From IMG/VR virus record IMGVR_UViG_3300005602_000004, positions 1-54,410 of that record: a stretch of DNA of 54,410 nt. One strand, written 5' to 3'. The first letter of the stretch is position 1, and every line of letters starts with the position of its first letter. Shown one piece after another: positions 1,263-54,410 of this stretch. Origin of the DNA: a virus (Duplodnaviria > Caudoviricetes). The translations under genes were made by a program, and so were the position numbers. The notes under the pieces are model-generated. The model did not search any database. It was not told where the DNA came from and worked only from the letters and a program-made list of their open reading frames with translations.

Positions 1263-1273
1263 GTGATGCCACC

Positions 1274-2283: not shown

Positions 2284-3332
2284 AGGCCGCAGTCGTTGTC
2301 ACCACGATCCACGATTGTACGGAACTCCTCGACGGATACCTAAAGAACTTCTCGAAGTATGGGCACGAGGTCAATTTTTATCTGATCCCGGATGTGAAGA
2401 CGCCTCGATTCGAAATTCCGACTGCTATAGGCGTTCCGAGTGACGGTCAACAAACGGCATTTCTCGAAAAGATTGGATTCCCTCCCGCCGACATTCCCTG
2501 GAACTCCGACAACCGGCGCAATGTCGGCTACCTCATGGCCCTTGCGGATGGAGCAGAGATGGTCGTCTCCATCGACGATGACAACTACTGCTCAGAGAAC
2601 GAGGATTACTTGCAAGCACATGAATACGGTTTTTCAAGGTCCGTGGGCTATGAAAACGAAGGACACTGGTATAACAATCTCGCTTTGCTGGATGCTCCTC
2701 CATACGAATATCCGAGAGGATTCCCTTTTTTTGCAAGGGGGACAGTAAAATCGAGAAAGCTACCGCTCACCGAATCTACCGTGAGAATCAACGCTGGGAT
2801 GTGGATTGGCGAACCCGATCTAGATGCGATGAGTTGGCTGCATCTTCCATTTCAGGCAATCCGATGCTCTAGCGAGTTAGTGCTTGGACCTGAAACTTGG
2901 TGCCCGATCAACTCTCAGAATACAGCGGTGCATCGAGATTTGATGGGCGCGTATTATTTCGTTCGTATGACCTCGCTGATGGATCGCTTCGGTGACATCT
3001 TCCAGGGATATTTCGCACTCAAAGTGGCAAAGCATATGGGTTGGACAGCCCGGTTCGGATCGCCTGTGGTCACGCATCGCCGGAACTCCCATGTGTACCT
3101 GAAGGATGTGCGGAAGGAAATCGAGCCAATTCTGCTCCTCGAAGAACTGCTCCCGAAACTGTTAGAGGTGAAACTAACCGGCACGACGGTCGAGGAAGCG
3201 TATTTGTCGCTTGCGGACTTTATCGAAAGCCAATCGTCGCCATTTTATTCCGAAACGGCTAGACTGATGCGCGTGTGGTCCGGCGCGATAGGGAGGATCA
3301 ATGGCAAAAGTCATTCTAGCCGGGGGGCCTAG
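2280..3332 (+). CDS. GT75-like protein (reversibly glycosylated polypeptide/STELLO-like)
   Basis: VVTTI, RRNVGYL, IDDDN, YPRGFPF, G.W.GEPDLDA, PINSQNT and RFGDI motifs; GTG start overlaps the upstream stop. Confidence 0.75.
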   Translation: MKAAVVVTTIHDCTELLDGYLKNFSKYGHEVNFYLIPDVKTPRFEIPTAIGVPSDGQQTAFLEKIGFPPADIPWNSDNRRNVGYLMALADGAEMVVSIDDDNYCSENEDYLQAHEYGFSRSVGYENEGHWYNNLALLDAPPYEYPRGFPFFARGTVKSRKLPLTESTVRINAGMWIGEPDLDAMSWLHLPFQAIRCSSELVLGPETWCPINSQNTAVHRDLMGAYYFVRMTSLMDRFGDIFQGYFALKVAKHMGWTARFGSPVVTHRRNSHVYLKDVRKEIEPILLLEELLPKLLEVKLTGTTVEEAYLSLADFIESQSSPFYSETARLMRVWSGAIGRINGKSHSSRGA

Positions 3333-4662
3333 TTTCGCCCTGTTCAATCCGTCTCTCCATGCGAGTCTTGGACTACTATATCTCGCGGCATGCCTTCGGG
3401 AAGCAGGTCACGAAGTCAAAATCATCGACTGCCATAAAATCAGCACCTTCGACGCCGAAGCGAATAAACTGCGAGTCGATCCCGACAAAATGGAACCCTG
3501 TGACATCCTCGGTGTGTCGATTGTTACGCCGAACGCCGAATTCGGAGGGCAACTAGCCGCTCTCTGGCCCGCCAAGGTGAAGGTAGCCGGTGGACCTCAT
3601 GTGACCTATATCATCGAAGGTCCGCACCAGCAGTTCAAGCAGAAGAAGTATTTCGAAGGGTTCGACTTCCTGATGACCGGCGAGTGCGAGGAATCGTTCG
3701 TCCAGTTCTGCAATCTTTGGCAATCGGGCGGCGATGTAACGAGGGTGCCGGGAGTGACGTGGTTCGACTCCTTCGGGGTTCATCAGCTTTACCCGTCGCC
3801 GCCACTACCGGACGTAACAAAAATGCCCTGTCCAGCTTATGACCTCTGGGGGAATTATTCGAAGGGAGGATTACAAGTTGCGTCGATCAAGGGGCACTCC
3901 GTGGATGTCGCTGAACGAACCATCGGATCGCTCTGGACGGCCAGAGGGTGTCCGTATGGTTGTTCGTTTTGTGCGGACGCGAGGACTAAACTCCGAGAAG
4001 AAACCTTCGACCAAATCGAAGCCGAAGTCAAAGCCCTCGCCGAAATCGGAGTGACCGCCCTCCGAGTTTGGGACGATGTGCTGACCATCAAGGCGAAGCG
4101 GTGCCGGGAACTGGCTGCCCTTTTCCACGACTACGGGATGCTCTGGCGGGGATGGAGCCGGGTGAATCTGTTCGACCCGGAACTGTTCAAGGACCTTGCT
4201 CGCCTCGGCTGCACGGAACTCGGATTTGGCGTTGAGCACGGATCGTCCCGAATGCTAAAGGCAATGAACAAGGGCACGACGCCAGAAGCGAACACCCGAG
4301 GAATTCGCCTATGCCAAGATGCCGGAATCTCGGCACGGGCGTATCTTCTGATCGGGTTTCCGGGTGAAACTTGGGAGTCGATCCAGGAAATGCAGGATTG
4401 GCTCGATGACTGCCGACCGGATGCAGCCAGCCTGCACCAATTTCAACCATATCCAGGGTGTGAAGTTTGGAATCATCCCGACCGTTTTGGAGTCACAATA
4501 ACTGCCGATTCATGGTCTAAGCTCTGGGAATTGAACGACGAGGACCCCAGTACGATTGTGCTCGAACTTCCTACGATGAATAAGGCGGAGTTGTTCGCTG
4601 CTAGAAAGCAGTTGCACGATTGGGTGACTGAAAATATCTCCCTTCGACTTGCGAACCGATGA
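3301..4662 (+). CDS. cobalamin-binding radical SAM enzyme (class B-like)
   Basis: N-terminal B12-binding motifs (LGLLYLAA, GGPH, GECE); RGCPYGCSFC; GVEHGS; GFPGET. Confidence 0.9.
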   Translation: MAKVILAGGPSFALFNPSLHASLGLLYLAACLREAGHEVKIIDCHKISTFDAEANKLRVDPDKMEPCDILGVSIVTPNAEFGGQLAALWPAKVKVAGGPHVTYIIEGPHQQFKQKKYFEGFDFLMTGECEESFVQFCNLWQSGGDVTRVPGVTWFDSFGVHQLYPSPPLPDVTKMPCPAYDLWGNYSKGGLQVASIKGHSVDVAERTIGSLWTARGCPYGCSFCADARTKLREETFDQIEAEVKALAEIGVTALRVWDDVLTIKAKRCRELAALFHDYGMLWRGWSRVNLFDPELFKDLARLGCTELGFGVEHGSSRMLKAMNKGTTPEANTRGIRLCQDAGISARAYLLIGFPGETWESIQEMQDWLDDCRPDAASLHQFQPYPGCEVWNHPDRFGVTITADSWSKLWELNDEDPSTIVLELPTMNKAELFAARKQLHDWVTENISLRLANR

Positions 4663-14155: not shown

Positions 14156-14426
14156 AAAGCTACTCCAAGCACTGACCGCGCTACCGGCGATGGTGATAGC
14201 AGGTAAAGATGGCAACCCGGTCGGAGTGAAGTATGAGACCACACCGGATAAGCGATACGTCGTATTCCTGAATGCACGAATGGTAGATGTAACGGATTTT
14301 TGCGCTCCACCTTCTGAATCATGCCCTGCCGCACATACACTTCCTCCGGGAACTGTTGTCCATTGTGTCTATGTGAGTAAAGATGAATCAATGGACGAAA
14401 TCATCCGTATCTACGAGGTCGGATAG
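14145..14426 (+). CDS. hypothetical protein with twin-arginine-like N-terminus
   Basis: MERRKLLQALTALPAMVIAG. Confidence 0.6.
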   Translation: MERRKLLQALTALPAMVIAGKDGNPVGVKYETTPDKRYVVFLNARMVDVTDFCAPPSESCPAAHTLPPGTVVHCVYVSKDESMDEIIRIYEVG

Positions 14427-16162
14427 TGTCCGTCACCTACGTCCAAGCGCCATTCATCGTCACCGAGGAGAAGAAAACTGTCGCTTTTACCGGAGATAAG
14501 AAAATATCGAAGCAACTCGATGAATTGCAGCGCATGTCGAAAAACGAACGGGAAAATAAGCAGGGAAGCAACCACTCCGATGAAATGCGGCAGTACTACA
14601 ACCTGAATTACTATCCATCGGTATCGACTCCCGCTTTCCGTCCCCGTGTCATTCTTCCCGAAGCGCAATTCCTGATGTGCTGTGAAGCGACCGAGCTAAC
14701 GAACGATACGCCCAAAGTTTACATCAGCGTGAATGGGAAGGCCGACGAGCAACGGGAGAAGGCATTCAACGCAGCATGGCGTCTCGGGATGTTCAATAAC
14801 CGGCTCTTTGACGGTGTTTTCTGGTCGCAATTCGTCAATCCATCCTTCATGCAGGTTGGCTGGAATCCCGACGCTCGAAACGGGAAGGGAATGGTTTGGA
14901 TCGCTGCCGACGATCCCGACACTATTTTCCCCGATCCGCACGCCAAGGATGACAAAACTTGGTCTTATGTCGTGAAGGAAAAGTACCTGTATGTCGATGA
15001 AATTAGGCGTATTTTCCCGGAAAAGGGGAAGTACGTCAAGATCGGCGGAGGGTACGACGATTACGAAGAGAATGAGATGGAAGGCTCCCATTTCGATCTT
15101 GGAATGGAACTTCCTCCTGGACCGCTTCGGATCGATGCCCCTCAAGGTTTCGAACATCAAAGGAACGGCCCTCGGGTACGCATCCGGTACGTATGGGTCA
15201 AGGATTATGCTCGGGATCGGGTGAAAGAGATCGCGGGACGAGAGGCCGGAGAAGGTTTCGAACTAGTAGTCCAGCCACGATTTAAGTGGAGGTATCCGAA
15301 CGGTCGATTCATCGTCGAGTGCAATGGGATTATTCTGGCTGATGGACCGAATTTCATGCCCCGATTGCCGGAGGATGATTTCGGTACTTTCCCGTTTATC
15401 GGCTTGTGGTCCATGCCGCACCTCGATTCGATGTACGGACCTCCCCCGATTCGGTACGTGAAGTCTCCACAGGACATTGCCGAGCGAATGTATACCCAGC
15501 TTATCGAGAACATGATCCGAACGAACAATGTGCAGTGCTGGATTCCTCGGGATGCGAATATCGACATCGATGCTTACGGCGGGTTGCCAGGAGAAGTGCA
15601 GGTTTACGACGGCGACAAGCCTCCGACCATGAGTTCGCCGCCACAGATTCCGCAGCATATGACACAGATACCGGAACTATTGCTGCAAAAAGTGGCGCGG
15701 TATTCGGGGACAACCCCTGAACGGCAGGGGCAGGCGGGTGGGGGAAACATTTCACCGGAACTGTTTGACGCTGCTGTATTTCAGGGTCAGACATTCGTTC
15801 GGATGAAAGCCCGCCTTCTTGCCGAATCGTATCAGCGGTTAGCACGACTCGTTTTTTACACAATGGCCCGGTTCAAGCGGAACGAAGATATGCTGATGCC
15901 CGAGCGCCGGAAGCAGAAATCATGTTCATGGTTGCCACTTCCCGATGGGGCGGAATGCGATCTCGAACTCGATTCAGTTTCATTACAGGCAGTTTCAAGC
16001 TCGATGATGAAGAATCTCGTTCTTTCGCTCTCGAAGACGGGCGCGTTGCCGCCGAAGTTTATCTTCGAGACGATGGGTTTCCCGCAAGCCGACCAATTGG
16101 CAGAAGATGCGCAAAATGCACAAGCATTAGCCGCGATTTCGAAATTGCGCCGTCCCCGGTAG
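14426..16162 (+). CDS. portal protein
   Basis: 578 aa, located between terL and the scaffold/capsid genes; DP..FPDP.A and FPF...W....S.YG motifs typical of podoviral portals. Confidence 0.85.
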   Translation: MSVTYVQAPFIVTEEKKTVAFTGDKKISKQLDELQRMSKNERENKQGSNHSDEMRQYYNLNYYPSVSTPAFRPRVILPEAQFLMCCEATELTNDTPKVYISVNGKADEQREKAFNAAWRLGMFNNRLFDGVFWSQFVNPSFMQVGWNPDARNGKGMVWIAADDPDTIFPDPHAKDDKTWSYVVKEKYLYVDEIRRIFPEKGKYVKIGGGYDDYEENEMEGSHFDLGMELPPGPLRIDAPQGFEHQRNGPRVRIRYVWVKDYARDRVKEIAGREAGEGFELVVQPRFKWRYPNGRFIVECNGIILADGPNFMPRLPEDDFGTFPFIGLWSMPHLDSMYGPPPIRYVKSPQDIAERMYTQLIENMIRTNNVQCWIPRDANIDIDAYGGLPGEVQVYDGDKPPTMSSPPQIPQHMTQIPELLLQKVARYSGTTPERQGQAGGGNISPELFDAAVFQGQTFVRMKARLLAESYQRLARLVFYTMARFKRNEDMLMPERRKQKSCSWLPLPDGAECDLELDSVSLQAVSSSMMKNLVLSLSKTGALPPKFIFETMGFPQADQLAEDAQNAQALAAISKLRRPR

Positions 16163-42030: not shown

Positions 42031-42411
42031 CTATACTGCCCACACGGATATGACCGTTCTCGGATTGTCGATATCCCGAGTCTTACTCATTCGAAGCTCG
42101 GTTACTTTTGCATCCGAGTCGATGATGGCCGAATAGACCAGGGAATCTAGCATTACCTTGGCGAAGTTATCCAAATCACCCTTCTGCTTCCTTCCGAGAA
42201 AGATCGAGATTCCGACTCCATAATGCTTCCATCGGATCGTCAGTTTCTTCGAATTGGCAATATGAAATACCAAGTCTTTGAATCGATTCGCTTCCTCGGT
42301 GACGTAGTGTCGGCCCATCTTCGTATGCCGGACGTAGGCATTCCCCGAGGGTGGTACTGCCGGAACCGAAAAGCTGATGCCCGCAGGCTTAGAAATGCGC
42401 CGGTTCTCCAT
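42031..42411 (-). CDS. rusA: RusA-like Holliday junction resolvase
   Basis: PPSGN, DLDN..K..LD and I.SD..V motifs. Confidence 0.85.
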   Translation of the reverse strand: MENRRISKPAGISFSVPAVPPSGNAYVRHTKMGRHYVTEEANRFKDLVFHIANSKKLTIRWKHYGVGISIFLGRKQKGDLDNFAKVMLDSLVYSAIIDSDAKVTELRMSKTRDIDNPRTVISVWAV

Positions 42412-43874: not shown

Positions 43875-44441
43875 TCATAGGGATTTCCTCGCGGCCAGTT
43901 TTGATACTTCGGCCATCAATTCGCGGTCGGCGCACATTGGCCCTGCTCCAACGTAGAGTTCCCTGGCAACCTCAGCTTCGACCTGTAAGCGCTTTTGCTT
44001 TGCTTCGATTTGCCGAATTTGCTCAGGTGAGTGGGAGCCGAGCCGGGGTTGCTCGGGTTTTGATTGCTTTAAGGACGGTTGCTTTAAGGACGGTTCGGGG
44101 GCAATGGGTTGCCCCCCCTGATGTCGCATTTTGCCCCCCTCTTGACGGATTTTGCCCCCGGCAAACTTTGCCCCCCTGTGGAAATATGCAAGACTGTAAA
44201 GGTTGGTTCCATGCGGACCCTTCCCGCGAGCACTTTTCAATTCGCCTGACTTCTCTAGTTTTCGTAGAGAGTATCGGACTTCGCGTTCACTCAAATGCGC
44301 TTCTCTAGCAATTGTGCGCAGACTAGGCCACGCGCCAGTGCCGTCATTTTTGGCGTGGTTAGCAATCGAAAGGAGAACGAGGCGAGCGCCGAGAGTGGAT
44401 TGTGATTGTTCTAAGACCCACGAAATTGCTTGGACTGACGT
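43875..44441 (-). CDS. HTH replication initiator, probable ACG start
   Basis: SVQAISWV...RLVLLSIANHA...AWPS..TIA.EA.LSER.V...L..LE..G is a typical phage initiator wHTH; internal iterons. Confidence 0.8.
   Translation of the reverse strand, partial: TSVQAISWVLEQSQSTLGARLVLLSIANHAKNDGTGAWPSLRTIAREAHLSEREVRYSLRKLEKSGELKSARGKGPHGTNLYSLAYFHRGAKFAGGKIRQEGGKMRHQGGQPIAPEPSLKQPSLKQSKPEQPRLGSHSPEQIRQIEAKQKRLQVEAEVARELYVGAGPMCADRELMAEVSKLAARKSL
44064..44177. repeat. putative replication origin: iterons inside the initiator gene
   Basis: TTGCCCCC at 44109, 44131, 44152 and 44168, inverted copy at 44097; 15-bp tandem GCTTTAAGGACGGTT. Confidence 0.7.
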
Positions 44442-44554
44442 GGCAGCCCCCTCGAAAGGCCAACGGGGGCGGTGTTCGAGGCACCGCCCCGGATCAGCTT
44501 CGGCATAAGAACCTGACGGTCCCACGCCAACTCGTTACATCAAATTCAAGGCGC

Positions 44555-46845: not shown

Positions 46846-47106
46846 CTACTGGTTCTTCGGCAATGCGTAAATAACACCCTCTCTCGCATAAATTTTGTGG
46901 CTCCCTCGGTATTTCCGCTTGAGGGCTTGGACGAAGGCATTGATCGGGTTTCTGAGGTCCAGTTCCCCATTCAAGCGGATTTCGATGCTCTTTCCGTCCT
47001 CGATGTCCCGTACGGCGCTTTTCCATTCGGGTGTATTCCGAATGATGCCGGATTGCTTCGGGCGAGGAGGATTCTTGGCGGCTTTGACACCACGGCTTTT
47101 CGGCAT
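46846..47106 (-). CDS. small basic protein
   Basis: SD AGGAGG. Confidence 0.65.
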   Translation of the reverse strand: MPKSRGVKAAKNPPRPKQSGIIRNTPEWKSAVRDIEDGKSIEIRLNGELDLRNPINAFVQALKRKYRGSHKIYAREGVIYALPKNQ

Positions 47107-47115
47107 GAATTCCTC

Positions 47116-47571
47116 CTAGGCGGCATCCGTTTCCGATGAATTGAGGTCGGTTCGAATTCCGGTGGTGTAATGGAATTTAATCTTCCGGCCAGCGACTTTG
47201 TGTGGACCCTTCGGCTTATGTGAGCCGAGACGCAAACTCTGCGGGAAAGTTTTGAGGGTATAGTCTCCCGGCGCAAAGCCAGCTTCGCGGTCGAAACTGA
47301 CAATCTCCCGCTGGACGGAATTCGGCACCCGGTAGCGAATGGCCTTTTTGCCTTTGATGACGTATGCCACACTGAGGGAAATAATGACTCCATCGGCTTT
47401 GGTCTTGCGTTTCGAAGCGACGGCCATTGCGCAAGAGGCATGGCTTCGGACAGCCGCCGAATTGGAATCATTGGCGGTCACTTCGATATTGAGTGGACTT
47501 TCTCCGTCCTCGACCTTTTCGACTTGCGGGAAATACCGCTTGACGATGATTAACGCTCGATCTATTTTCAT
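47116..47571 (-). CDS. hypothetical protein, paralog of 47574-48065
   Basis: YFP.VE.VEDG, DSNSAAVR, CAMAVA and EIVSFDREAGFAPG are shared. Confidence 0.85.
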   Translation of the reverse strand: MKIDRALIIVKRYFPQVEKVEDGESPLNIEVTANDSNSAAVRSHASCAMAVASKRKTKADGVIISLSVAYVIKGKKAIRYRVPNSVQREIVSFDREAGFAPGDYTLKTFPQSLRLGSHKPKGPHKVAGRKIKFHYTTGIRTDLNSSETDAA

Positions 47572-47573
47572 GG

Positions 47574-48065
47574 TTATTCAATCTCCACATCGGACCCAAG
47601 TGCTGTTCGGATGCCGGTTGTTTTGTGCTGGAAGCGCACTGGTTTCCCGGTCAACTTGCCTGGACCAAACTCTCTTTTTTCTCCGAATCGGTTTGCTGGA
47701 CTTTCGGGGATCAGTTGATAGGTTCCCGGCGCGAAACCAGCTTCCCGGTCGAAGCTCACAATTTCTTTTTGAGCGGACATTGGGACGGCGTATCGGGTTG
47801 CCGTGTTGCCCTTGATGATGTAGGCAACGCTTCGGGCAATGAGAACGCCATCGGCGTGCATCTTGCGTTTGCAGGCAACAGCCATCGCGCATCCCTCTTT
47901 GTTGCGAACGGCGGCAGAGTTCGAGTCTGCTTTCGTCACTTCGACTTGAAGCGGCTTATCGCCATCCTCGACTCTCTCAACCTTCGGGAAATACTTTCGG
48001 ACGTTTGCGAGCGCGATGGACTTTGGTCTGTGATTCTGCGGGATACGGTTCACTTTGGTTGACAT
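47574..48065 (-). CDS. hypothetical protein, paralog of 47116-47571
   Basis: same shared blocks; SD AAGGAG. Confidence 0.85.
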   Translation of the reverse strand: MSTKVNRIPQNHRPKSIALANVRKYFPKVERVEDGDKPLQVEVTKADSNSAAVRNKEGCAMAVACKRKMHADGVLIARSVAYIIKGNTATRYAVPMSAQKEIVSFDREAGFAPGTYQLIPESPANRFGEKREFGPGKLTGKPVRFQHKTTGIRTALGSDVEIE

Positions 48066-48076
48066 TCGATTCTCCT

Positions 48077-48460
48077 TTATCGAGCGACGTAGAATTTACT
48101 GCGCCGAGTAGCGGGTGCGGGACTCGGAATGAGTTGATCGTGGAGCCGGTCTAATTCCGACTCAATCGTTTGGCGCATCTTCGAAAAGGCATATTCGAGG
48201 AGCGCGGGTGAGATTTCGGTGAAGTGTCCATTCGTCGGCAAGTTGTGAAGCAAGTCCTTTCGGATTTTATTGAGTGGATTACCGACCTCATAGCCGGTCT
48301 TGACGTTCACGAGGACGTGCCCAGGGAATCTCTTTCGATGCCCGGTTTGTCCGGTTTGCGAAGCTACCCACATATTGCAGGTCTTGCAAATGTATTTGGC
48401 CTCGGGCGGAACCTTGCCATCTGCGGGAATATACTTATCCATGCGGGATACTGTTGCCAT
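48077..48460 (-). CDS. hypothetical protein with a C2H2-like motif; first gene of the leftward arm
   Basis: CKTC...H....PGH; SD GGAG. Confidence 0.65.
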   Translation of the reverse strand: MATVSRMDKYIPADGKVPPEAKYICKTCNMWVASQTGQTGHRKRFPGHVLVNVKTGYEVGNPLNKIRKDLLHNLPTNGHFTEISPALLEYAFSKMRQTIESELDRLHDQLIPSPAPATRRSKFYVAR

Positions 48461-48587
48461 GTGCGGTTCTCCAGTTCAAAGCGATTTTGGGCTTACTCGT
48501 TTGGCCTATAGGCGCTTTTAAAACTCCGGCAGAAAAATTCGCAGCAAAAACGATTCCTCGAAAATTCACCCGGATTTTTTGAAAGAG

Positions 48588-48681
48588 CCTGTAACCCTCC
48601 GAGGACCCGAAACCCTCGGAAAACGCCATTTTCGTTTGGATTGTCGGGTCCCCGGAGTCATAGGAGCAAACCAACTACAGG
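48588..48681 (-). ncRNA. candidate antisense sRNA or leader RNA with an exposed anti-RBS segment
   Basis: 14-bp stem CUCCGGGGACCCGA/UCGGGUCCUCGGAG (G-U on the minus strand, A-C on plus); 5' segment GUUGGUUUGCUCCUAUG complementary to six RBS regions; directly behind a promoter. Confidence 0.65.
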
Positions 48682-48684
48682 TAA

Positions 48685-48713
48685 AATCTACACTGTCAAG
48701 TGTTGTTTGTCAA
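48685..48713 (-). promoter_or_regulatory. leftward sigma70-type promoter
   Basis: TTGACA-N17-TAGATT. Confidence 0.75.
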
Positions 48714-48798
48714 CTGGCAAGTGTGGAAAATTTATACGGTAAAAACTTCCAACTAACATACGGACACGCAATAGTTTCCATACTTTACAGATTACGCT

Positions 48799-48827
48799 TG
48801 ACACTTTTCACGCATTGCTGTATCTAA
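48799..48827 (+). promoter_or_regulatory. rightward promoter candidate for the small-gene arm
   Basis: TTGACA-N17-TATCTA (imperfect -10) in an AT-rich divergent intergenic region. Confidence 0.5.
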
Positions 48828-48870
48828 TTTCGTGCGGGCGAATATTGCCCAACAAGAGGAGTAAAAACCG

Positions 48871-49194
48871 ATGGCAGAAAACGAACAAGTTATCCCGTTG
48901 CGTCAACCGCAAGTAGGGCGAAAGAACGTGATTCTCGGCAAGATTCTCACTAATTCGCAGATACACAAGGCTTTGGACATTCTGCGGGATGAAGAGTTAA
49001 CCGGAAATGATCGGTCTCCGGAGAGGATTACCGAAGAACTGATTCGTCCCATCATTTCGTACATCAACCGCGTAACGGGACAGGAGAATGACCCTGCCTA
49101 TCTCGGATACGCAATCGCGTTTGCCTTGCGTCCGCACATTATTGGAGCGGAGTCCGACCGCTTGGAGTGTGAAGACCCAAGCATATGCGAGTGA
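48871..49194 (+). CDS. hypothetical protein
   Basis: SD GAGGAG; IN..TGQENDPAYL.YA motif. Confidence 0.75.
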   Translation: MAENEQVIPLRQPQVGRKNVILGKILTNSQIHKALDILRDEELTGNDRSPERITEELIRPIISYINRVTGQENDPAYLGYAIAFALRPHIIGAESDRLECEDPSICE

Positions 49195-49301
49195 TATGTG
49201 CGCTCATTTCGGTAGCCGTGCTCTTTTACCGGGAATGGTTTGGACCGGACTCGGAAGAGATAGCACGGCAAACGTGGGACGCATGTATGCGGAAGCGGTA
49301 G
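49185..49301 (+). CDS. small protein (38 aa)
   Basis: MRVICALISVAVLFYREW...; ends exactly where leader element 1 begins. Confidence 0.4.
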   Translation: MRVICALISVAVLFYREWFGPDSEEIARQTWDACMRKR

Positions 49302-49388
49302 ATGCGCCTTGCGGGTTTCGCTCGGCAAACGAGCGATTCCCGGAACGTGCATAGGACGTTCCAATCCGAGACTGAGGAGCAAACCAGC
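49302..49388 (+). promoter_or_regulatory. structured leader element 1
   Basis: TTGCGGG-[hairpin]-CCCGGAA; alternative hairpin GGAACGT/ACGTTCC; RBS AGGAGCAAACCA. Confidence 0.7.
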
Positions 49389-49736
49389 ATGACTTATGAC
49401 TTGTTTTTCCATGACTACGGGGTCCAGGGATTCACGCAACGCGGGCGAGACTTCATTGGAAACATTCTTTCCAAACGTCCGCTGTTTGCGCCGCTGGATT
49501 ACCGGGAAGCGGTCCGGGATGGACTACTCGTTTCCTTCCGGAATCGAGCGGTGGCGGACGCTGCACTCACTGATCCCGGCAGCACGTCAACCATCGAAAA
49601 CGGTGATGGACCTTTTGTGACGGACGTGGGAGTCGAAACCCCGGAAGGGCTTCCGCTTCCATTCGTTACCGAAGTACCTGCCACGATTGAGGACTGCGAG
49701 CTAGAGGACGATTCTCCAGACGCGGCCTTGTGTTAA
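49389..49736 (+). CDS. hypothetical acidic protein
   Basis: start placed at MTYDLFF behind AGGAG. Confidence 0.7.
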   Translation: MTYDLFFHDYGVQGFTQRGRDFIGNILSKRPLFAPLDYREAVRDGLLVSFRNRAVADAALTDPGSTSTIENGDGPFVTDVGVETPEGLPLPFVTEVPATIEDCELEDDSPDAALC

Positions 49737-49748
49737 AGCGGGATGTAG

Positions 49749-49840
49749 TAGTCCCTTGCGGGTTTCCCATGCCCAACTAAAAAGCATGGGATTCCCGGAA
49801 CGGATTAACCGTTCCAATCTGACATAGGAGAACAAACCAA
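49749..49840 (+). promoter_or_regulatory. structured leader element 2
   Basis: TTGCGGG-[hairpin]-CCCGGAA; GGAACGG/CCGTTCC; CATAGGAG. Confidence 0.7.
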
Positions 49841-50038
49841 ATGCCACGTACAGCGAAGAAAATGAGTCCCAAGGCGGCTCGGAAGAGGAATCGTCGGACT
49901 ACGAACGTGCATGTCCACATTCATCCCCCTGCGCAAGCCTCGGATGAGCAGTTCGAGCAAATGCTCGCGCAATTGGAGAACGGGGACGCTAGTCCAGACG
50001 GTCCGGACAGTGACCCGGACTCCGACCCGCTTTCCTAG
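49841..50038 (+). CDS. small protein with a basic N-terminus and an acidic C-terminus
   Basis: SD AGGAG; VHVHIH. Confidence 0.65.
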   Translation: MPRTAKKMSPKAARKRNRRTTNVHVHIHPPAQASDEQFEQMLAQLENGDASPDGPDSDPDSDPLS

Positions 50039-50115
50039 TGGATTGCCGATAGGACTCCTTCGGGAGTCCCTTCGGGAATGCACACCAAAGCATTCCGACA
50101 TAGGAGAAACCCCGC
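50038..50115 (+). promoter_or_regulatory. structured leader element 3
   Basis: TTGCCGA-[UUCG hairpin]-TCGGGAA; GGAATGC/GCATTCC; CATAGGAG. Confidence 0.7.
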
Positions 50116-50487
50116 ATGAAACCAAAGCAACACAGGGAAATCGCGTCCGGGAAGTTAAAGCTCGCGGCATCGATCATCCGGGAAGCGATAACGGAAGCGA
50201 ACGAAGCGGCAGCACACAAAACCCTCGTCCGGAGACTTGCAAGAGCGGAATTAATGCTCGGCAGGGAAGCGGACGTTTTGAAGCAAAACAATCGGCTACC
50301 AGACTTGCATTACACCCACATGATGTACCGATGGGAGGACGGCGAATTAACGGAGGAGGAGACGAGCGAGCTATTCCAGCACCTTGTAGACACTGGCCTA
50401 GTGTGGCAGCTACAGGGGACGTACGGACGTGAGGCAGCGAGACTAATCGAAGCGGGCGAAATTCGATGGGTGCCGAATGCGCGTTGA
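50116..50487 (+). CDS. conserved phage hypothetical protein
   Basis: E.GEL..EE..ELFQ.LVDTG..W.LQG.YGR.A..LI..G motif. Confidence 0.8.
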   Translation: MKPKQHREIASGKLKLAASIIREAITEANEAAAHKTLVRRLARAELMLGREADVLKQNNRLPDLHYTHMMYRWEDGELTEEETSELFQHLVDTGLVWQLQGTYGREAARLIEAGEIRWVPNAR

Positions 50488-50893
50488 GCTAACGCGTTCT
50501 GGGAAGATTCGGGCGACATCGATGATACCGAATCCGCAGAAGTGTGCAGCGATGCGGACTAAAACCTATCCCTACTGGGTGCGGATTGAGGGAACCGACC
50601 GCAAGCTTTCTCCGGAGGGGTACCTATTCAATAACGAGCGGATACAGAGCTATTTCGACAATCGTTTCGGGCATCTAGCCAAGCCATGGCGAGCGGAGTC
50701 CTGCGAAAACATGGCTCTAGAAGCTTGCAAAGACCTGTCCCGGATCATGCTTGACGAAGGAATAGACGTTAAGTGTGTGGAATGTCAGATACTTGGAAGT
50801 AATGGAGCAAAGATTCGAGGAATCTGGAACGCGCCGGGAGAGGAGCAAACTGGCCGTGAATCAATTTCTGAAAACGCTGTTAGCGGAATGTGA
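50477..50893 (+). CDS. degenerate QueD/PTPS-like T-fold protein
   Basis: C..Y.V.IEG..L..EGY..N...ESCENMA spacing resembles QueD, but HxH is absent. Confidence 0.45.
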   Translation: MRVELTRSGKIRATSMIPNPQKCAAMRTKTYPYWVRIEGTDRKLSPEGYLFNNERIQSYFDNRFGHLAKPWRAESCENMALEACKDLSRIMLDEGIDVKCVECQILGSNGAKIRGIWNAPGEEQTGRESISENAVSGM

Positions 50894-51044
50894 GCGAGAG
50901 CACAAGCAATCCGGGGACACCGGAGACTGGCAGACGTGGTATGCGTCCTACATGACTCCGCGTCTATCGGAATGGCTGTTAAACACATACGGGAGTTTTG
51001 CGGGCGAGATAGCGTGTCCGTACAAGCTTCCGGGAAAGGAATAA
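50856..51044 (+). CDS. hypothetical protein
   Basis: GTG behind AGGAG; H......DW..WYA.Y motif. Confidence 0.65.
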   Translation: MNQFLKTLLAECEREHKQSGDTGDWQTWYASYMTPRLSEWLLNTYGSFAGEIACPYKLPGKE

Positions 51045-51046
51045 CG

Positions 51047-51247
51047 GTGCATCGGAAGAGGCATTGGGTAGTCCGTTGTGCTCGCCGTTGCAAGGGATTC
51101 GTAATCCGAGCGGTAATCGTGACACTCGCCGTGCTCGCCATACTGATCATCATGGCGAACACAGGGGAAGTGGTATCGGTAGGAGTAGCAACGGAGCGAC
51201 TAACGGAAGCATTGGGTATGGCAGCGGCAGACACGTTTGCCGATTGA
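51047..51247 (+). CDS. small membrane protein
   Basis: one long hydrophobic helix; SD AAGGA. Confidence 0.6.
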   Translation: MHRKRHWVVRCARRCKGFVIRAVIVTLAVLAILIIMANTGEVVSVGVATERLTEALGMAAADTFAD

Positions 51248-51248
51248 T

Positions 51249-51322
51249 CGTCCTCGGGGACTCTCGAAATAGAGTCTCCCGGGATGCGTTCATAGGCGCA
51301 TCAGACATAGGAGCGTAAGCCG
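51249..51322 (+). promoter_or_regulatory. structured leader element 4
   Basis: CGGGGACTCT/AGAGTCTCCCG; GATGCGTT/GGCGCATC; CATAGGAGC. Confidence 0.6.
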
Positions 51323-51814
51323 ATGAAACAAAGAGCGATAGTCTTAATCACGATTGACCCGGACGAAAAACCGCGTGCGAGCAACACGCAAAACCATGTA
51401 GCAACGAATCCGATAACTGGGGAATTAGCCGCATTGTTTGAGGTCAACATTTTCCGGAACGATGTAGACGGCAAGGACCCGGAAAAGCTAACCTCGGAAA
51501 GCATGAAAACGAGTCTCGCGCATGAACTAGGCCACGTCGTTGCTACGCTGGCAAACACCAAAGCAAACCGGGATGACCCTCGGAGTAAACCGATGGGCAA
51601 TCGGTGGACAGAGGAACCCGGGGAAGCGGTAGTCAATTCGGAGCGGGAAGCATGGGAAATAGCGCGTCTCATCGCGCCGGACCTAGACGAGCGGGAAGCG
51701 GAGCGAAACCTTGCCAGTTATGAGGAGGACCCGACACTAGACGGGCAATTGAGAATTGCTATCCTTGCGGACATGGTTGCACACCAAAACCCGGAGAAAG
51801 GAGGAATCAACTAA
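51323..51814 (+). CDS. HExxH zinc metallopeptidase-like protein
   Basis: LAHELGH plus downstream E.EAW. Confidence 0.75.
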   Translation: MKQRAIVLITIDPDEKPRASNTQNHVATNPITGELAALFEVNIFRNDVDGKDPEKLTSESMKTSLAHELGHVVATLANTKANRDDPRSKPMGNRWTEEPGEAVVNSEREAWEIARLIAPDLDEREAERNLASYEEDPTLDGQLRIAILADMVAHQNPEKGGIN

Positions 51815-51816
51815 CC

Positions 51817-51903
51817 GTGATCACCGTAGCTTGGATAGTGCTCGGAATAGCGGCAATTCCGGTATTGTGGTGTCTCGTTCAGGAGAGACACACCCGGCAG
51901 TGA
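51817..51903 (+). CDS. small membrane peptide (28 aa)
   Basis: VITVAWIVLGIAAIPVLWCLVQERHTRQ; SD AGGAGG. Confidence 0.45.
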   Translation: MITVAWIVLGIAAIPVLWCLVQERHTRQ

Positions 51904-51957
51904 GCCTGCATTGCGGGTGCGGCATTCGGAAGAGTGCCAATCCCGGAGGGTAGGCGA
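51904..51957 (+). promoter_or_regulatory. structured leader element 5 (short form)
   Basis: GCCTGC-aTTGCGGG-[GGAA hairpin]-CCCGGAG-GTAGGC. Confidence 0.6.
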
Positions 51958-52089
51958 ATGTGCGAGCTAATCGAAATGGTTATTGCTCTATGGTTTATCG
52001 CGGTTTTCGGCTTACTGGTTTTATGGGCAATCGTGCGCGTCGGGGTATGGCTTGCATTCGGACCGAAAGAGACAGGGAAGAAAACATGA
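51958..52089 (+). CDS. small membrane protein (43 aa)
   Basis: MCELIEMVIALWFIAVFGLLVLWAIVRVGVWLAFG... Confidence 0.55.
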   Translation: MCELIEMVIALWFIAVFGLLVLWAIVRVGVWLAFGPKETGKKT

Positions 52090-52241
52090 ATGCCCGCACA
52101 TTCGACACGCGCACACTCGCAGGTTTGAAAGCGGCAGAACGCTATCAGGCAAGGCTTTACAATTGTTTCGACAAGGTGACAGTCACGACAATTGGCCTAT
52201 ACCGCGTCCGCATTTCGGGCTTGACTCCGAAACCCCGATAG
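52086..52241 (+). CDS. hypothetical protein
   Basis: ATGA overlap; T.T.AGLKAAER motif. Confidence 0.6.
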   Translation: MNARTFDTRTLAGLKAAERYQARLYNCFDKVTVTTIGLYRVRISGLTPKPR

Positions 52242-52257
52242 GCGCATTCTCGGGCGC

Positions 52258-52617
52258 ATGGACCCGCGTTTCGATTCGACACACCCGAAATTCTTACCGT
52301 GGTGGACTCGCGCAGATCGGCACACATTCGAATATCAGCTTGCCCGGATGAAACGTGCATTGCCGTATTGCCGAGGACGCGCATCGGACCTAAGACCGCA
52401 TCTCGAATCGCACATCCGTTTTCTCGAATCAAAGCAACACATTTCGATTCAACAGCAAAGAGCAATCATGCTCGACACTTCGACACTCCTAGAACGCCTT
52501 GCCATTCGATATAACGTATCATTCCCCGTTTCGACACTTCGGACCCTCAAATCCGGAATAGGCCTCTTAAAACAGCACGCAAACTCCAGCAATGGCACGT
52601 CTACAGGCCGGTCTTGA
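52258..52617 (+). CDS. hypothetical protein
   Basis: 119-aa ORF in operon orientation. Confidence 0.5.
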   Translation: MDPRFDSTHPKFLPWWTRADRHTFEYQLARMKRALPYCRGRASDLRPHLESHIRFLESKQHISIQQQRAIMLDTSTLLERLAIRYNVSFPVSTLRTLKSGIGLLKQHANSSNGTSTGRS

Positions 52618-52865
52618 GCGAATCGAGCAAAACACAACGTACGTCCGCTGCGACACTTGCTCGAATGGAAGTATGGAAGCGTACTCCGGCCCATGAACGT
52701 AAGCGTATCGGAATGCGCTTGTTTGCGATCTACAGCGGACGTAGGTCCCAACAAATGTATAGGTTACGTGGTATTGATCCGTTCGCGTACGCTCGGCAAT
52801 TCCGCTGGCCGAAGAAGAAAACAGACGAAGAAAAGACGCGCAGCAAAGTCCTACCAATTGGCTAA
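52614..52865 (+). CDS. hypothetical basic protein
   Basis: TTGA overlap with the upstream stop. Confidence 0.5.
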   Translation: MSESSKTQRTSAATLARMEVWKRTPAHERKRIGMRLFAIYSGRRSQQMYRLRGIDPFAYARQFRWPKKKTDEEKTRSKVLPIG

Positions 52866-53089
52866 CACACACATTCTACAGGTACATACGTTGGGCATTG
52901 TCGTATACTAAGTACTATGTTTACCTCACGCCTACGCTCGCGCCTAAGTCTCTCATTCTAAGCATGTAACGTCTCTGGGAACCCCATCGCGGATGTTCAA
53001 GCCCCGGGTTTGAGCACGCGGTTCGGGGAACTGGCTACCGCGAGGCCAATCCGTACAATCTGGTGGATTCATGCCCAACAAGGTTGATT

Positions 53090-53142
53090 TGTACCCACGA
53101 ATTCTCTTGACAACTGTACCCACAGGGCGTAGATGTACCCAC
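53090..53142 (+). promoter_or_regulatory. leaderless promoter with three TGTACCCAC direct repeats
   Basis: TTGACA(53107)-N17-TAGATG-N7-ATG; repeats at 53090, 53115 and 53134. Confidence 0.7.
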
Positions 53143-53559
53143 ATGAATGATGCGACGGTGAAGTTCCGGTTGCCGAGTGTGGAACTGGAGCGGTGGAGGG
53201 TGCAAGCAGCGGAGGCAGGGGAGTCGGTATCGGAGTGGATACGTAGCCGGTGCAACGACGGGGCAGGACTGCCGAAAGCAGGGTTGAGCGGTGTTGATCC
53301 GACCGATCTTGGGAATGAGGTTGGGGAGCCGTCAATTTCCAATTCTGCCCCGACCAAAACGGAGGAAAGTGGAGAAGATTATCGAGCGTCGGACGTGTCA
53401 AGGGGTGGAGAGGTACCTGCGCCTCGGAGACGGAAGTCTGTTTCCGTTGGACCTCTTGCCTCGATGCAGTGCAGTCATTGTGGGCACGGGAAGGCTGTGC
53501 ATCGAGGATTTGGAACGGCGTGCATTCAGGATGATTGTCGGTGTGGAGGATTCAGATGA
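53143..53559 (+). CDS. ribbon-helix-helix protein with a C-terminal Cys/His module
   Basis: VKFRL...E...W...A..AG.SVSEWIR; CSHCGH...H...C...CRC..F. Confidence 0.7.
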   Translation: MNDATVKFRLPSVELERWRVQAAEAGESVSEWIRSRCNDGAGLPKAGLSGVDPTDLGNEVGEPSISNSAPTKTEESGEDYRASDVSRGGEVPAPRRRKSVSVGPLASMQCSHCGHGKAVHRGFGTACIQDDCRCGGFR

Positions 53560-53732
53560 CGGAGACTCCGGACAAGGGGTTGGGGTATTTGCACAAGGAG
53601 TACAAGGAAATCGGGGTGCATGAAGCGGAATCGGTATGGCAGACGTGTATGTGTCGGTCGTGTCAGGATATTAGAGAACTTAGGCATCACGACAAGGGTA
53701 CGAGTTTTCGGCACAAGGACGAGAAATACTAG
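53556..53732 (+). CDS. small hypothetical protein
   Basis: SD GGAGG; ATGA overlap; CMCRSC. Confidence 0.5.
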   Translation: MTETPDKGLGYLHKEYKEIGVHEAESVWQTCMCRSCQDIRELRHHDKGTSFRHKDEKY

Positions 53733-53857
53733 ATGAAGGTTGGGCAAAGGCTGGTGAGCCGGGAACCGAGGGTAAGTGTACCGTGTTTAACCGGGCAGCA
53801 CGGGCATTGTTTTAAGCTGAATTGCTCGTGTACACGCCACGGAAAGAGGAGGCAGTG

Positions 53858-54349
53858 ATGTGGTTCAAGCCGAAGTTGACTAGGGAACCAGTGGTGATCG
53901 ATCAGCCGGACGAATCGAGGAAGGCGCTCGCGGTCAAGGCCAGGGTGGTGTTGGGATACCTGGTGCTCGAACGAGAGATTCCAGGATCGAACGCGAAGAC
54001 TGAGGTCGAGACGGTTTTCAAGAAGTTAGGCATAGAGCCGCTTAATTTCGAGCGAGTCCAGAAGTATCAGAAGTGGTTTGCCAAAAAACATTCAGGAAGT
54101 TTCAGTTGGGAAAGAACAGTTTGGCATGAAACGCCGATTAGACAGTACGAGCATTTTATCCCCGAGTTTGCCCTATCGAGGGCAGTGGAGGTCAAGGAGC
54201 ATCTTCCGGCAGCCGAATTTACAATCGAGTTTCCGGTACGGGAGCAAATCGTTCGGCCCGATCCATTTATGGTGATACATTATAAAGGGACTAAGTATTA
54301 TCTCGATGTGTGGGATGAACCGAAATTCGAAGGTCGGAGGACCGTCTAA
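53858..54349 (+). CDS. conserved phage hypothetical protein
   Basis: SD GAGGAGG; W..T....Y...IPEFAL, DPFMV and VWDEP.F motifs; TAATG coupling to gene 1. Confidence 0.8.
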   Translation: MWFKPKLTREPVVIDQPDESRKALAVKARVVLGYLVLEREIPGSNAKTEVETVFKKLGIEPLNFERVQKYQKWFAKKHSGSFSWERTVWHETPIRQYEHFIPEFALSRAVEVKEHLPAAEFTIEFPVREQIVRPDPFMVIHYKGTKYYLDVWDEPKFEGRRTV

Positions 54350-54410
54350 TGGCACGAGGAAAACTGTTCGAGTACGCAGTTCTGTATCATCCAAAGCCGT
54401 CCAAGGATCA
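54321..54410. repeat. 90-bp terminal direct repeat, copy 2
   Basis: identical to 1-90. Confidence 0.95.

Follow-up and report, generated by a model that had tools for sequence, protein, structure and literature searches.

A phage genome was found to carry, besides six extended ribosome-binding sites (RBSs) in front of rightward genes, one copy of the same motif that has no gene and lies at the putative start of a leftward transcript. We propose that the complement of this copy at the 5′ end of the leftward leader (the anti-motif) pairs in trans with the early rightward ribosome sites. Documented below are the sequence architecture, how well it is conserved, the way in which the anti-motif co-varies with the motif allele, and the predicted pairing; on these we put the probability of this reading at roughly 0.45. 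Sequence comparison supports selection on the gene-less copy, which in every relative occupies the predicted leader of the leftward operon's transcript, and supports its co-variation with the lineage-specific motif across three alleles. New here are the conservation of the module in seven variants and the change of the gene-less copy with the allele in distant phages. Every sequence statement in the initial annotation was confirmed on checking; its interpretation is supported in part.

The window, that is, the whole stretch analysed, is the complete record of a soil phage (54,410 nucleotides; 54.4 kb), for which blastn gave zero matches among GenBank phages. Our start set consisted of 89 start contexts in the window, taken from rough in-house gene calls. 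The seven diverged variants compared were the window, L006, L008, L009 and, as group B, L010, L011 and L012. None of the RNA runs searched for this sequence contains it.

Leftward promoter, gene-less copy and leader

The elements of the leftward side are as follows.

48685..48713, minus strand: sigma70-like leftward promoter, -35 TTGACA (48713-48708), 17-nt spacer, -10 TAGATT (48690-48685)
48690..48703, no strand: palindrome ACACTGTCAAGTGT within the promoter spacer, abutting the -10
48659..48675, minus strand as RNA: gene-less motif copy CATAGGAGCAAACCAAC, as RNA GUUGGUUUGCUCCUAUG, starting 9 nt past the -10, at about +2 to +4 of the predicted transcript
48597..48657, minus strand: stable hairpin with a 14-bp outer stem, directly after the anti-motif
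48532..48583, minus strand: A/U-rich block UUCAAAAAAUCCGGGUGAAUUUUCGAGGAAUCGUUUUUGCUGCGAAUUUUUC, 52 nt, conserved, in the leftward leader
48490..48514, minus strand: degenerate sense-like motif copy CGCCUAUAGGCCAAACGAGUAAGCC in the leader, a possible cis partner of the anti-motif
48077..48460, minus strand: first gene of the leftward operon, 127 aa, Cys/His-rich
left of the 48077..48460 gene, leftward operon: replication initiator (O-like) and RusA

The initial annotation placed TTGACA-N17-TAGATT on the minus strand at 48713-48685, and a consensus scan recovered it. By itself the match proves nothing, since the same scan gave 4 sites in 47500-54410 where 4.2 were expected. The promoter position was kept in 7/7 close variants, all with a 17-nt spacer and a -10 of the TAnnnT type; the -35 was TTGACA in four, TAGACA in two and TTCCCA in one.

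As had been noted, no start codon follows the gene-less copy: TAC AGG TAA stands in its place. Since the copy lies 9 nt downstream of the leftward -10, the leftward transcript would open with the complement of the motif. The stem arms (48597-48610 and 48644-48657, 14 nt) are 93% complementary, and 48588-48681 folds better on the minus strand (-42.6 kcal/mol) than on the plus strand (-35.9), both in agreement with the earlier description. The 89-nt 5′ module of the window had a predicted energy of -38 kcal/mol (z -3.0). An open anti-motif followed by a hairpin was predicted in all eight of the folded 5′ modules (z -2.0 to -5.3), with unrelated stem sequences, and the leader sense was more stable than the opposite sense in six modules and equal to it in two. 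The largely unpaired 5′ segment claimed earlier is predicted for the 5′ modules but not for full-length leaders, where this seed was mostly paired in the predictions (mean P(unpaired) 0.12-0.52; in full-leader ensembles 0.20 for L006, 0.12 for L008 and 0.15 for L009).

Behind the hairpin, the window reads GGUUACAGGCUC without a U-tract, and the scan of the window listed no minus-strand terminator there. A discrete sRNA made from the leader, as first proposed, is therefore not indicated. A UUUUUCUU tail was present in L008 and L009 only, of the seven close variants, and no U-tract follows the hairpin in L017, L018 or L044. The 52-nt A/U-rich block has 43/52 invariant columns in group A (four diverged variants) and 40/52 in all seven variants; it had no match in Rfam.

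In the mechanism that we favor, the sigma70-like promoter would fire and transcribe the leftward (replication/recombination) operon, giving an RNA with the anti-motif at its 5′ end and the stable hairpin after it. This 5′ module would base-pair in trans with the rightward RBSs, over the SD and 3-9 flanking nt on each side, and it may act within the leader or once cleaved in the conserved A/U-rich block past the hairpin. Expression of the two divergent early operons would be coupled post-transcriptionally, in a direction and with a sign that we infer; in the simplest form, initiation would be blocked on the rightward genes. The annotation saw in this a timing or immunity switch. Because the two promoters appear constitutive, there are no grounds for a timing switch, and the immunity switch likewise lacks a basis and is unsupported.

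Rightward ribosome sites and predicted pairing

Six rightward genes (48871-51323) share an unusually long SD motif, (CAT)AGGAG..AAACC, each preceded by tandem hairpins.

48798..48826, plus strand: rightward promoter-like element, TTGACA, 17 nt, TATCTA
48857..48870, plus strand: extended RBS AGGAGTAAAAACCG of gene 48871-49194; duplex -18.9 kcal/mol
49309..49362, plus strand: hairpins in tandem ahead of the 49389 RBS; similar elements near 49738-49815, 50047-50096 and 51255-51301
49375..49388, plus strand: extended RBS AGGAGCAAACCAGC of gene 49389-49736; -25.9 kcal/mol, the best non-self site genome-wide
49823..49840, plus strand: extended RBS CATAGGAGAACAAACCAA of gene 49841-50038; accessibility-corrected rank 1
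50099..50115, plus strand: extended RBS CATAGGAGAAACCCCGC of gene 50116-50487 (DUF7417)
50841..50855, plus strand: extended RBS AGGAGCAAACTGGCC of GTG gene 50856-51044, within the end of gene 50477-50893; rank 27/89 with target structure counted
51306..51322, plus strand: extended RBS CATAGGAGCGTAAGCCG of gene 51323-51814

The promoter-like element fails the -10 rule of the consensus scan; its TTGACACTTTTCAC is kept in relatives. The RBS copies before 48871, 49389, 49841, 50116, 50856 (GTG) and 51323 match those quoted in the initial annotation. GGAG lies 9-10 nt ahead of the ATG or GTG in all six, the flanks are conserved on both sides, and the extended motif was absent from the remaining 83 of the 89 start contexts. 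Four copies of CATAGGAG occur in the window, every one on the plus strand, from 48659 to 51313 (shuffles: mean 1.04; 4 reached in 2/100). Restriction of the motif to the divergent rightward arm holds for the window, where all motif copies are on the plus strand (48659-51322), but not for relatives L011, L012 and L006, where a few leftward genes also have it upstream. The four tandem-hairpin elements had z values of -4.8, -4.5, -3.6 and -2.1 and left the RBS motif unpaired in their centroid structures. Upstream hairpin sequences differ among cassettes and among lineages, and the consensus scan found no promoter-like site within them.

To rank duplexes, the 5′-terminal 24 nt of the RNA were compared with positions -30..+10 of the 89 starts. 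The six sites, which had been expected to rank top, came 1, 2, 3, 5, 8 and 9 by duplex energy, but with opening energies added one fell to 27 (1, 2, 3, 4, 7 and 27; Mann-Whitney p = 5e-6), and the ranking is partly circular because it restates sequence similarity. Opening of the seed costs about 9 kcal/mol, leaving net energies of -3 to -11. When 21,752 30-nt windows on both strands were scanned without bias, the 49389 site (-25.9) alone stood above the best non-RBS matches (-22.8, -22.1). Sites 49841, 51323 and 50856 were at -22.8 to -21.7; three of the four best named sites were not above the best random sites genome-wide. Under the gapped alignments of the initial annotation, the 10 substitutions in four targets are indeed all C>T or A>G. 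Its own caveat about wobble pairing holds, because transversions disappear into the gaps and the flank consists of A/C only.

The anti-motif might instead work in cis. Leader anti-SD sequences can occlude the SD of their own operon, as in translational attenuators and RNA thermometers. Here the partner of the anti-motif would be a segment of the same leader that resembles the motif, or else the RBS of the leftward operon, and the pairing would shut the leader and control leftward translation or stability; the complementarity of the anti-motif to the rightward sites would be a by-product of an extended SD common to the early genes of the lineage. We consider this unlikely. It would explain the co-variation too, and the full-leader ensembles, in which the seeds of L006, L008 and L009 are paired, agree with it. 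An anti-SD helix was predicted clearly in L019, where the minimum-free-energy (MFE) structure of the leader (z -4.0) pairs the anti-motif with the SD region of the first leftward gene, AACAAUAGGAGGA. In L018 the predicted partner of the anti-motif is a downstream CACGAGGAG with an ATG behind it, in L017 it is CAGAG, and CCAUAGGCCAAACCAAC lies downstream in L008 (-19.6 kcal/mol; 4/500 shuffles as good) and L009 (-17.5 kcal/mol; 13/500).

In the window, however, pairing with 48490..48514 was at chance level (-13.1 kcal/mol, equalled by 180/500 shuffles). It was weak also in L006 (82/500), L010 (62/500), L011 (210/500) and L012 (107/500), and in L044 (-5.5) and L017 (-8.4). The SD of the window's leftward operon was a poor partner (-10.6, rank 15/89) and is not seed-paired in the MFE structure. 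The cis partner is conserved at 11/17 columns against 17/17 for the anti-motif. In every lineage compared, the divergent RBSs fit the anti-motif better than any cis site: the best trans duplexes were -18 to -26 in the window (own leader -13.1), -19 to -20 in L017 (-8.4), -21 to -22 in L018 (-17.2), -18 to -19 in L044 (-5.5) and -25 to -26 in L019 (-18.9).

Conservation and co-variation in relatives

The seven variants retain the promoter, the spacing, the anti-motif and the hairpin. The anti-motif showed no variation at 17/17 columns within group A and at 15/17 across all seven; the corresponding counts for adjoining segments were 2/9 between the -10 and the seed, 5/17 in the promoter spacer and 23/109 in the hairpin plus linker. 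A start codon follows the gene-less copy in none of the seven. No single RBS copy is as invariant as the gene-less one, which 11 variant loci, representing three alleles, retain at a constant position with respect to the leftward promoter.

The motif allele is CACAGAGGAG in three distant phages and CTCACNCGAAAGGAA in one, and the gene-less copy changes alongside. The RBSs of L017, L018 and L044 are (T/A)CACAGAGGAG (3, 2 and 3 copies), and each of these phages has one gene-less CACAGAGGAG downstream of an opposite-strand TTGACA-17-TAnnnT promoter, followed by a hairpin. In L019 two RBSs have the form ATCTCAC(G/A)CGAAAGGAA, and the opposite leader carries a single gene-less CTCTCACAACGAAAGGAA. 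The seed/target covariation that had been suggested as a check was thus found across three alleles, but in group B the seed is altered to CGTAGGAGCAACC while the RBSs remain ATAGGAGCAAACC. The co-variation spans about three clades and therefore few independent events. The same pattern would arise under any motif-reading factor, or if the cassette copies underwent gene conversion.

A protein of the phage or host might read the motif as double-stranded DNA. Its operator would then be the copy that spans +3 to +20 at the leftward promoter, and the copies at gene starts would be roadblock or marking sites, like the stoperators of Cluster A mycobacteriophages. The position just past the start point is classic for operators, a protein recognition sequence would make all copies co-vary, and the region seems to hold protein sites, namely the spacer palindrome and, read from the sequences of relatives, repeated CACTTTTCAC boxes. 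Exact ACACT-N4-AGTGT occurs once in the window, at the palindrome, and aligned relatives show palindromes at the same place; this unique, conserved palindrome suggests a protein regulator and is likely an operator. For the Cluster K motif, Pope et al. (2011; PMC3203893) allowed, in the passages concerned, a protein or an RNA ligand. On the other hand, the motif contains the SD at a constant 9-10 nt from start codons, which argues for the RNA level. The hairpin is kept with unrelated sequences and is stabler in the transcribed sense, unlike an inverted-repeat site for a protein. Pfam/PHROG searches of about 37 of the roughly 89 ORFs gave no DNA-binding family and no candidate binding protein. 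The earlier remark that no classical CI-type repressor was recognised has to be read with the promoter palindrome in mind, which points to a protein regulator. For the motif itself, we regard a DNA-level role as quite improbable.

Least probable is a functionless gene-less cassette, a 'hairpin + RBS' boundary cassette that was duplicated, left where the rightward arm ends and homogenised by recombination among cassettes. Such cassettes flank swapped gene modules in relatives. Gene content between cassettes varies among the window, L002 and L003, with insertions and losses at cassette borders. Consisting of a hairpin and the motif, the gene-less copy is a complete cassette and is oriented in the DNA like the rest, as expected for a duplicate; this observation speaks against the trans reading. 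Against a functionless cassette, the copy persists in 11 loci with three alleles at one promoter-relative place although its flanks have diverged, and its hairpin is upheld by differing sequences. If the RBS copies, which vary, were the donors of conversion, variation rather than invariance would spread.

Related systems

The closest known analogues are the start-associated sequences (SAS) of Cluster K mycobacteriophages and P1 c4 RNA. The window phage is unrelated to Cluster K phages (blastn, GenBank phages). SAS, in the passages of Pope et al. (2011; PMC3203893) that describe them, share with the motif an asymmetric conserved sequence around ATAGGAG that extends beyond the SD, a few nt before start codons, and restriction to the non-structural early arm in a single orientation with inverted repeats upstream. 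There is also one extra copy away from gene starts, which we confirmed for Anaya. The consensus differs (CATAGGAGCAAACC or CACAGAGGAG here; in Cluster K the 13-bp GGGATAGGAGCCC, with at most 2 mismatches); compared by reading, the window copies (C)ATAGGAGC/A..AAACC share only ATAGGAG with the latter. The repeats here are true hairpins of variable sequence without a promoter, whereas those of ESAS are conserved in sequence and bear a SigA-like promoter; no conserved-sequence, promoter-bearing, imperfect 17-bp inverted repeats of that kind were found in the window. The extra copy here forms the 5′ end of the leader of the divergent operon, whereas that of Anaya is reversed and occupies a non-coding gap close to the right end. 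Krueger has 15 exact SAS copies and no complementary copy at the Anaya-type site; this persistence of the analogous motif is a further observation against the trans reading.

More speculatively, lineage-specific extended SDs may be 'address labels' on early genes, read by the 5′ end of the divergent transcript, with label and reader co-evolving as interchangeable alleles (CATAGGAGCAAACC, CACAGAGGAG, CTCACNCGAAAGGAA). With the alternative cis pairing in the leader, the interaction would become two-way, in that early rightward mRNAs could open the replication leader and be silenced themselves. We hold this broader proposal to be possible but doubtful. If true, it would give the first mechanism for start-associated sequences, which have been unexplained since 2011 and whose function was still called unknown in papers of 2024 and 2025.

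In multi-target or 5′-UTR-derived bacterial sRNAs with a 5′ seed, a single-stranded 5′ seed precedes a stable hairpin, the seed is more conserved than any single target, and the targets are at ribosome sites. The window differs from these in having no Rho-independent terminator and in a seed that contains an anti-SD and reads the SD plus flanks. The c4 RNA is excised by processing. In P1 and P7 it is a leader-derived phage RNA that pairs around an RBS and blocks translation, as far as it is summarised in PMC12197685. According to the same summary, co-variation of RNA and target shifts specificity between related phages (P1 vs P7), as it may here, and the c4 RNA acts on a single target, which lies downstream on the same transcript, with its pairing segments in loops. 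The target ribosome-binding regions are complementary to the RNA in both systems. Here, in contrast, the predicted targets, at least six, are on the divergent operon and not downstream in the same transcript, and the pairing segment is 5′-terminal and linear.

Organisation of the divergent region and its start-site motif

The phage record, which has direct terminal repeats at its ends (54,410 bases, IMG/VR), is organised in two divergent arms with the following features.

About 40.2-48.46 kb, minus strand: leftward arm, replication/recombination genes
42031-42411, leftward arm: RusA-like resolvase
43875-44525, leftward arm: lambda-O-like replication initiator
48461-48870: divergent region of 410 nt, which, with the initial 2.5 kb of the rightward arm, holds the finding
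From 48871, plus strand: rightward arm, beginning with small genes of unknown function, one with DUF7417
14426-16162, structural genes of the rightward arm: P22/SU10-like portal

The rightward arm continues over the record ends into sugar/modification genes and then the structural genes. A blastn search of GenBank phages with 48000-52000 found no relative, two scans of genome contigs gave no host match, and the window contained no tRNA genes. Six DNA soil runs, of which one is probably the source, and no RNA run were listed as carrying 47000-52000.

The leftward promoter sequence (TTGACA-17-TAGATT, minus strand, 48713-48685) was confirmed, as was CATAGGAGCAAACCAAC at 48659-48675, a copy of the start-site motif with no start codon after it (the gene-less copy). 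The initial annotation was also correct about the arms of the 14-nt stem (48597-48610 and 48644-48657) and about the fold being more stable on the minus strand (-42.6 kcal/mol) than on the plus strand (-35.9 kcal/mol). Six rightward genes (starts 48871, 49389, 49841, 50116, 50856 and 51323) carry the extended Shine-Dalgarno (SD) described for them, namely (CAT)AGGAG, 0-2 nt and an AAACC-like sequence, with the start codon 9-10 nt past GGAG. This extended motif is absent from the other 83 start contexts of our rough gene list. Upstream of each of the six ribosome-binding sites (RBSs) stand two hairpins in tandem (z -2.1 to -4.8), with the motif itself unpaired. The core CATAGGAG occurs four times in the window, always on the plus strand and within 48659-51313; shuffled sequences had a mean of 1.04 copies, and four were reached in 2 of 100.

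CATAGGAG was likened to the ends of T7-type promoters, and a phage RNA polymerase promoter was considered. This idea was dropped because the ten largest proteins gave no match to a polymerase family and the distance to the starts is SD-like. Rfam gave no family at gathering score for the whole window, and its E-value mode gave just two chance-level matches for 48300-51500.

Conservation and co-variation of the gene-less copy

The family of the first rightward gene comprises only 4 clusters. Viral and metagenome scans yielded seven distinct control regions: the window, L006, L008 and L009 (group A), and L010 (identical to L002), L011 and L012 (identical to L003) (group B). The leftward -35 is TTGACA in four of them, TAGACA in two and TTCCCA in one; all seven have a 17-nt spacer and a TAnnnT-type -10. 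The minus-strand sequence of the gene-less copy (the anti-motif, or seed) is present in every version as GTTGGTT(T)GCTCCTA(T/C)G, 9 nt from the -10 (11 nt in L012). Its columns are invariant at 17/17 in the four group-A variants and at 15/17 across all seven. For the flanks, the invariant columns number 2/9 between the -10 and the motif, 5/17 in the promoter spacer and 23/109 in the hairpin with its linker. The gene-less copy is steadier than every individual orthologous RBS and, judged by this pattern of invariant columns, is under selection. A start codon past it is found in none of the seven variants, which ruled out a small ORF behind it. As for a leader peptide from an AUG within the seed, conservation fails in group B, where the codon is ACG. 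A copy homogenised with the gene-bearing sites and lacking function would also resemble them; with the gene-less copy the steadiest of all, we regard this explanation as very improbable.

The leader of the leftward transcript also holds a 52-nt A/U-rich block (window 48532-48583, minus sense) with 43/52 and 40/52 invariant columns, a conservation far above that of the leader around it or of the adjacent proteins; L018 has a weaker likeness. It had no match in Rfam and might be a processing site or a protein/Hfq-type binding site.

The second leftward gene (47574-48065) belongs to a broad family of 104 clusters, and a 29-member alignment of it retrieved 70 viral loci. Most of these had nothing comparable to the design in the window; four (L017, L018, L044 and L019) shared that design and had motif alleles other than that of the window. 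Ahead of the starts of divergent genes, L017, L018 and L044 have (T/A)CACAGAGGAG in 3, 2 and 3 copies, respectively. Each of these loci has one gene-less CACAGAGGAG, with TTGACA-17-TACCCT, TACACT or TAGGGT upstream on the opposite strand and a hairpin next. In L019 the two sites read ATCTCAC(G/A)CGAAAGGAA, and the opposite leader has CTCTCACAACGAAAGGAA as its gene-less copy. An exact 9-mer screen of the 70 loci found the pattern in L015, L017, L018, L044 and L019, along with scattered two-copy matches that we judged to be chance; an 8-mer screen was noisy. Thus, by sequence comparison, the gene-less copy tracks the motif of its lineage over three alleles, which is the strongest new result. The co-variation, based on about three clades, shows a single agent to be the reader of every copy; that this agent is an RNA does not follow. 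Even if pairing is not real, a single factor reading all copies is still indicated.

Upstream of the leader promoter, L019 also has a run of repeats, GGTATTGTCT / GGCATTATCTAGAT (3950-4030), which could be iterons or operators.

Proposed pairing in trans, with pairing in cis and a protein reader as possible alternatives

All evidence is computational. The reading that we favour, at a probability of roughly 0.45, is that the 5′ leader of the leftward transcript bears an anti-RBS element whose trans partners would be the extended SDs ahead of the early rightward genes. The initial annotation had expected these six genes to rank first as targets. Largely as expected, they took places 1, 2, 3, 5, 8 and 9 of 89 by duplex energy, and places 1, 2, 3, 4, 7 and 27 of 89 with the opening energies of both RNAs; the ranking restates sequence similarity and hence adds no separate evidence. 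When both strands were scanned without bias, the 49389 site (-25.9) alone exceeded the best non-RBS matches, near -22.

Eight 5′ modules, each an anti-motif with its hairpin and together representing every lineage, were folded to look for signs at the RNA level. They have like folds with unrelated stems (z -2.0 to -5.3), and the leader sense is more stable than the opposite sense by 3.6-7.8 kcal/mol in six of them and equal in two. In every lineage, the anti-motif forms a better duplex with the divergent ribosome sites than within its own leader. Of 55 site comparisons, 41 favoured the real-strand duplex over its mirror-strand counterpart; this result was set aside on account of the G/U-rich seed, the dependence among sites and a few non-motif sites in the set.

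No U-tract comes after the hairpin in the window, and among the close variants only L008 and L009 have one (UUUUUCUU). Barring processing, the RNA of the window would therefore be a 5′ leader of about 217 nt. The predicted structures of full leaders leave little of the seed free (mean unpaired probability 0.12-0.52); its partners in cis are as follows.

L008 and L009: downstream motif-like CAUAGGCCAAACCAAC
L017: downstream CAGAG
L018: downstream CACGAGGAG plus AUG
L019: SD of the first gene itself

A leader helix acting in cis only is a second, unlikely explanation. The helix was significant in L008 and L009 (matched in 4 and 13 of 500 shuffles), and no significance was seen in the window (180 of 500), L006 or L010-L012; the better duplexes of the anti-motif are those with the divergent sites. 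Because both types of partner exist, it is plausible that cis and trans partners compete, which would couple the divergent early operons both ways.

The group B seed has one substitution and one deletion, and the group B RBSs retain the group-A form. Single leftward genes of L011 (about 2803, minus strand), L012 (about 2813, minus strand) and L006 (about 2226, minus strand) have the motif in front of them as well, e.g. ATAGGAGAAAACCAATG, so it is not strictly a mark of the rightward arm. The absent U-tract, the paired seed, the drift in group B, the leftward motif copies and the listing of no RNA run with the sequence tell against a simple trans-acting sRNA.

A motif-binding protein with the motif as its DNA operator would also be a single reader of all copies; given the like folds of the eight modules and their mostly greater stability in the leader sense, we consider it rather improbable. 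A protein regulator of the leftward promoter is a separate matter: the promoter spacer contains a perfect, genome-unique palindrome, ACACTGTCAAGTGT (ACACT-N4-AGTGT, 48690-48703), and relatives have palindromes at the same place, which suggests an operator. No regulator for it turned up in family searches with about 37 of the roughly 89 ORFs.

The interpretation in the initial annotation finds partial support, and its observations stand and are considerably extended. The proposed "timing or immunity switch" is without support; each of the two promoters resembles an ordinary sigma70 promoter.

Related systems and neighbouring genes

Since 2011, Cluster K mycobacteriophages have been known to carry conserved motifs around the starts of early genes (start-associated sequence, SAS). 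In its passages on SAS, the original paper describes a 13-bp GGGATAGGAGCCC 3-7 bp ahead of starts, in the non-structural arm only and in a single orientation, often with inverted repeats upstream; it mentions a lone reversed SAS away from gene starts in K1 phages and allows RNA or protein as the ligand (PMC3203893). Later papers, where they touch on the element, still call its role unknown and place a promoter within the extended form (ESAS). SAS is the nearest described system and shares ATAGGAG and the general design with the window motif. It differs in consensus, promoter-bearing repeats and phage lineage, so the window motif is an analogue, not a member.

In phage Anaya, the reversed SAS forms the loop of a 6-bp stem (GCGCGG/CCGCGC) in a GC-rich non-coding gap of 385 nt behind a terminator.

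L085 34690-35067 (record about 59689-60066): Anaya gap with the sole reversed SAS

This gap is shared, in conserved form, by 182 Cluster K records, and its local fold in Anaya is unexceptional (z -1.1). Complementarity of the loop to SAS is confined to Anaya, Angelica, Peanam and Mdavu. In Ekdilam and Krueger the loop sequence differs and the complementarity is absent; Krueger nonetheless keeps 15 exact SAS. The idea of an RNA reader therefore transfers poorly to Cluster K.

The closest antisense RNA in action is c4 of P1/P7, which, in the part of PMC12197685 that deals with it, pairs around a ribosome site with a specificity that shifts between related phages. Unlike the divergent-arm sites in the window, its target is single and lies on its own transcript.

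The present case, in an unrelated soil phage group, adds to the same kind of motif a single conserved complementary copy, located where the opposite early transcript has its 5′ end. As a variation on phage antisense control and start-associated motifs, it makes the old question of the motif ligand testable by simple reporters. If the pairing is real, it would be a compact multi-target circuit of translational control coupling two divergent early operons, and the natural alleles would provide ready orthogonal pairs for compensatory tests.

Several neighbouring genes deserve mention. A 38-codon ORF (49185-49301, plus strand) overlaps the stop of gene 48871-49194, with its ATG within ...ATGCGAGTGA; it lacks an extended RBS, had no Pfam match, appears hydrophobic by eye and is kept in L002 and L003. 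The first leftward gene (48077-48460, minus strand; L017 4615-4998) has a C-x2-C ... H-x5-H spacing that resembles a C2H2 zinc finger; its sole family match was a sub-threshold B-box zinc domain in the L017 homologue (E 0.014). L019 and L044 have other genes in its place. In L002 (3459-3899, plus strand), and likewise in L003, L007 and L011, an additional 146-aa gene lies between the divergent promoters. Its own TTGTTA-17-TAAAAT promoter ends only 9 nt before the ATG and an SD is lacking, which makes the gene nearly leaderless; it gave no Pfam match and shows a D...D-x-K nuclease-like motif by eye. Just past the early genes, window 459-4662 (plus strand) encodes UDP-glucose-dehydrogenase-like, methyltransferase, RGP-type glycosyltransferase and B12-binding radical SAM proteins, and may be a module for sugar modification of DNA or surface.
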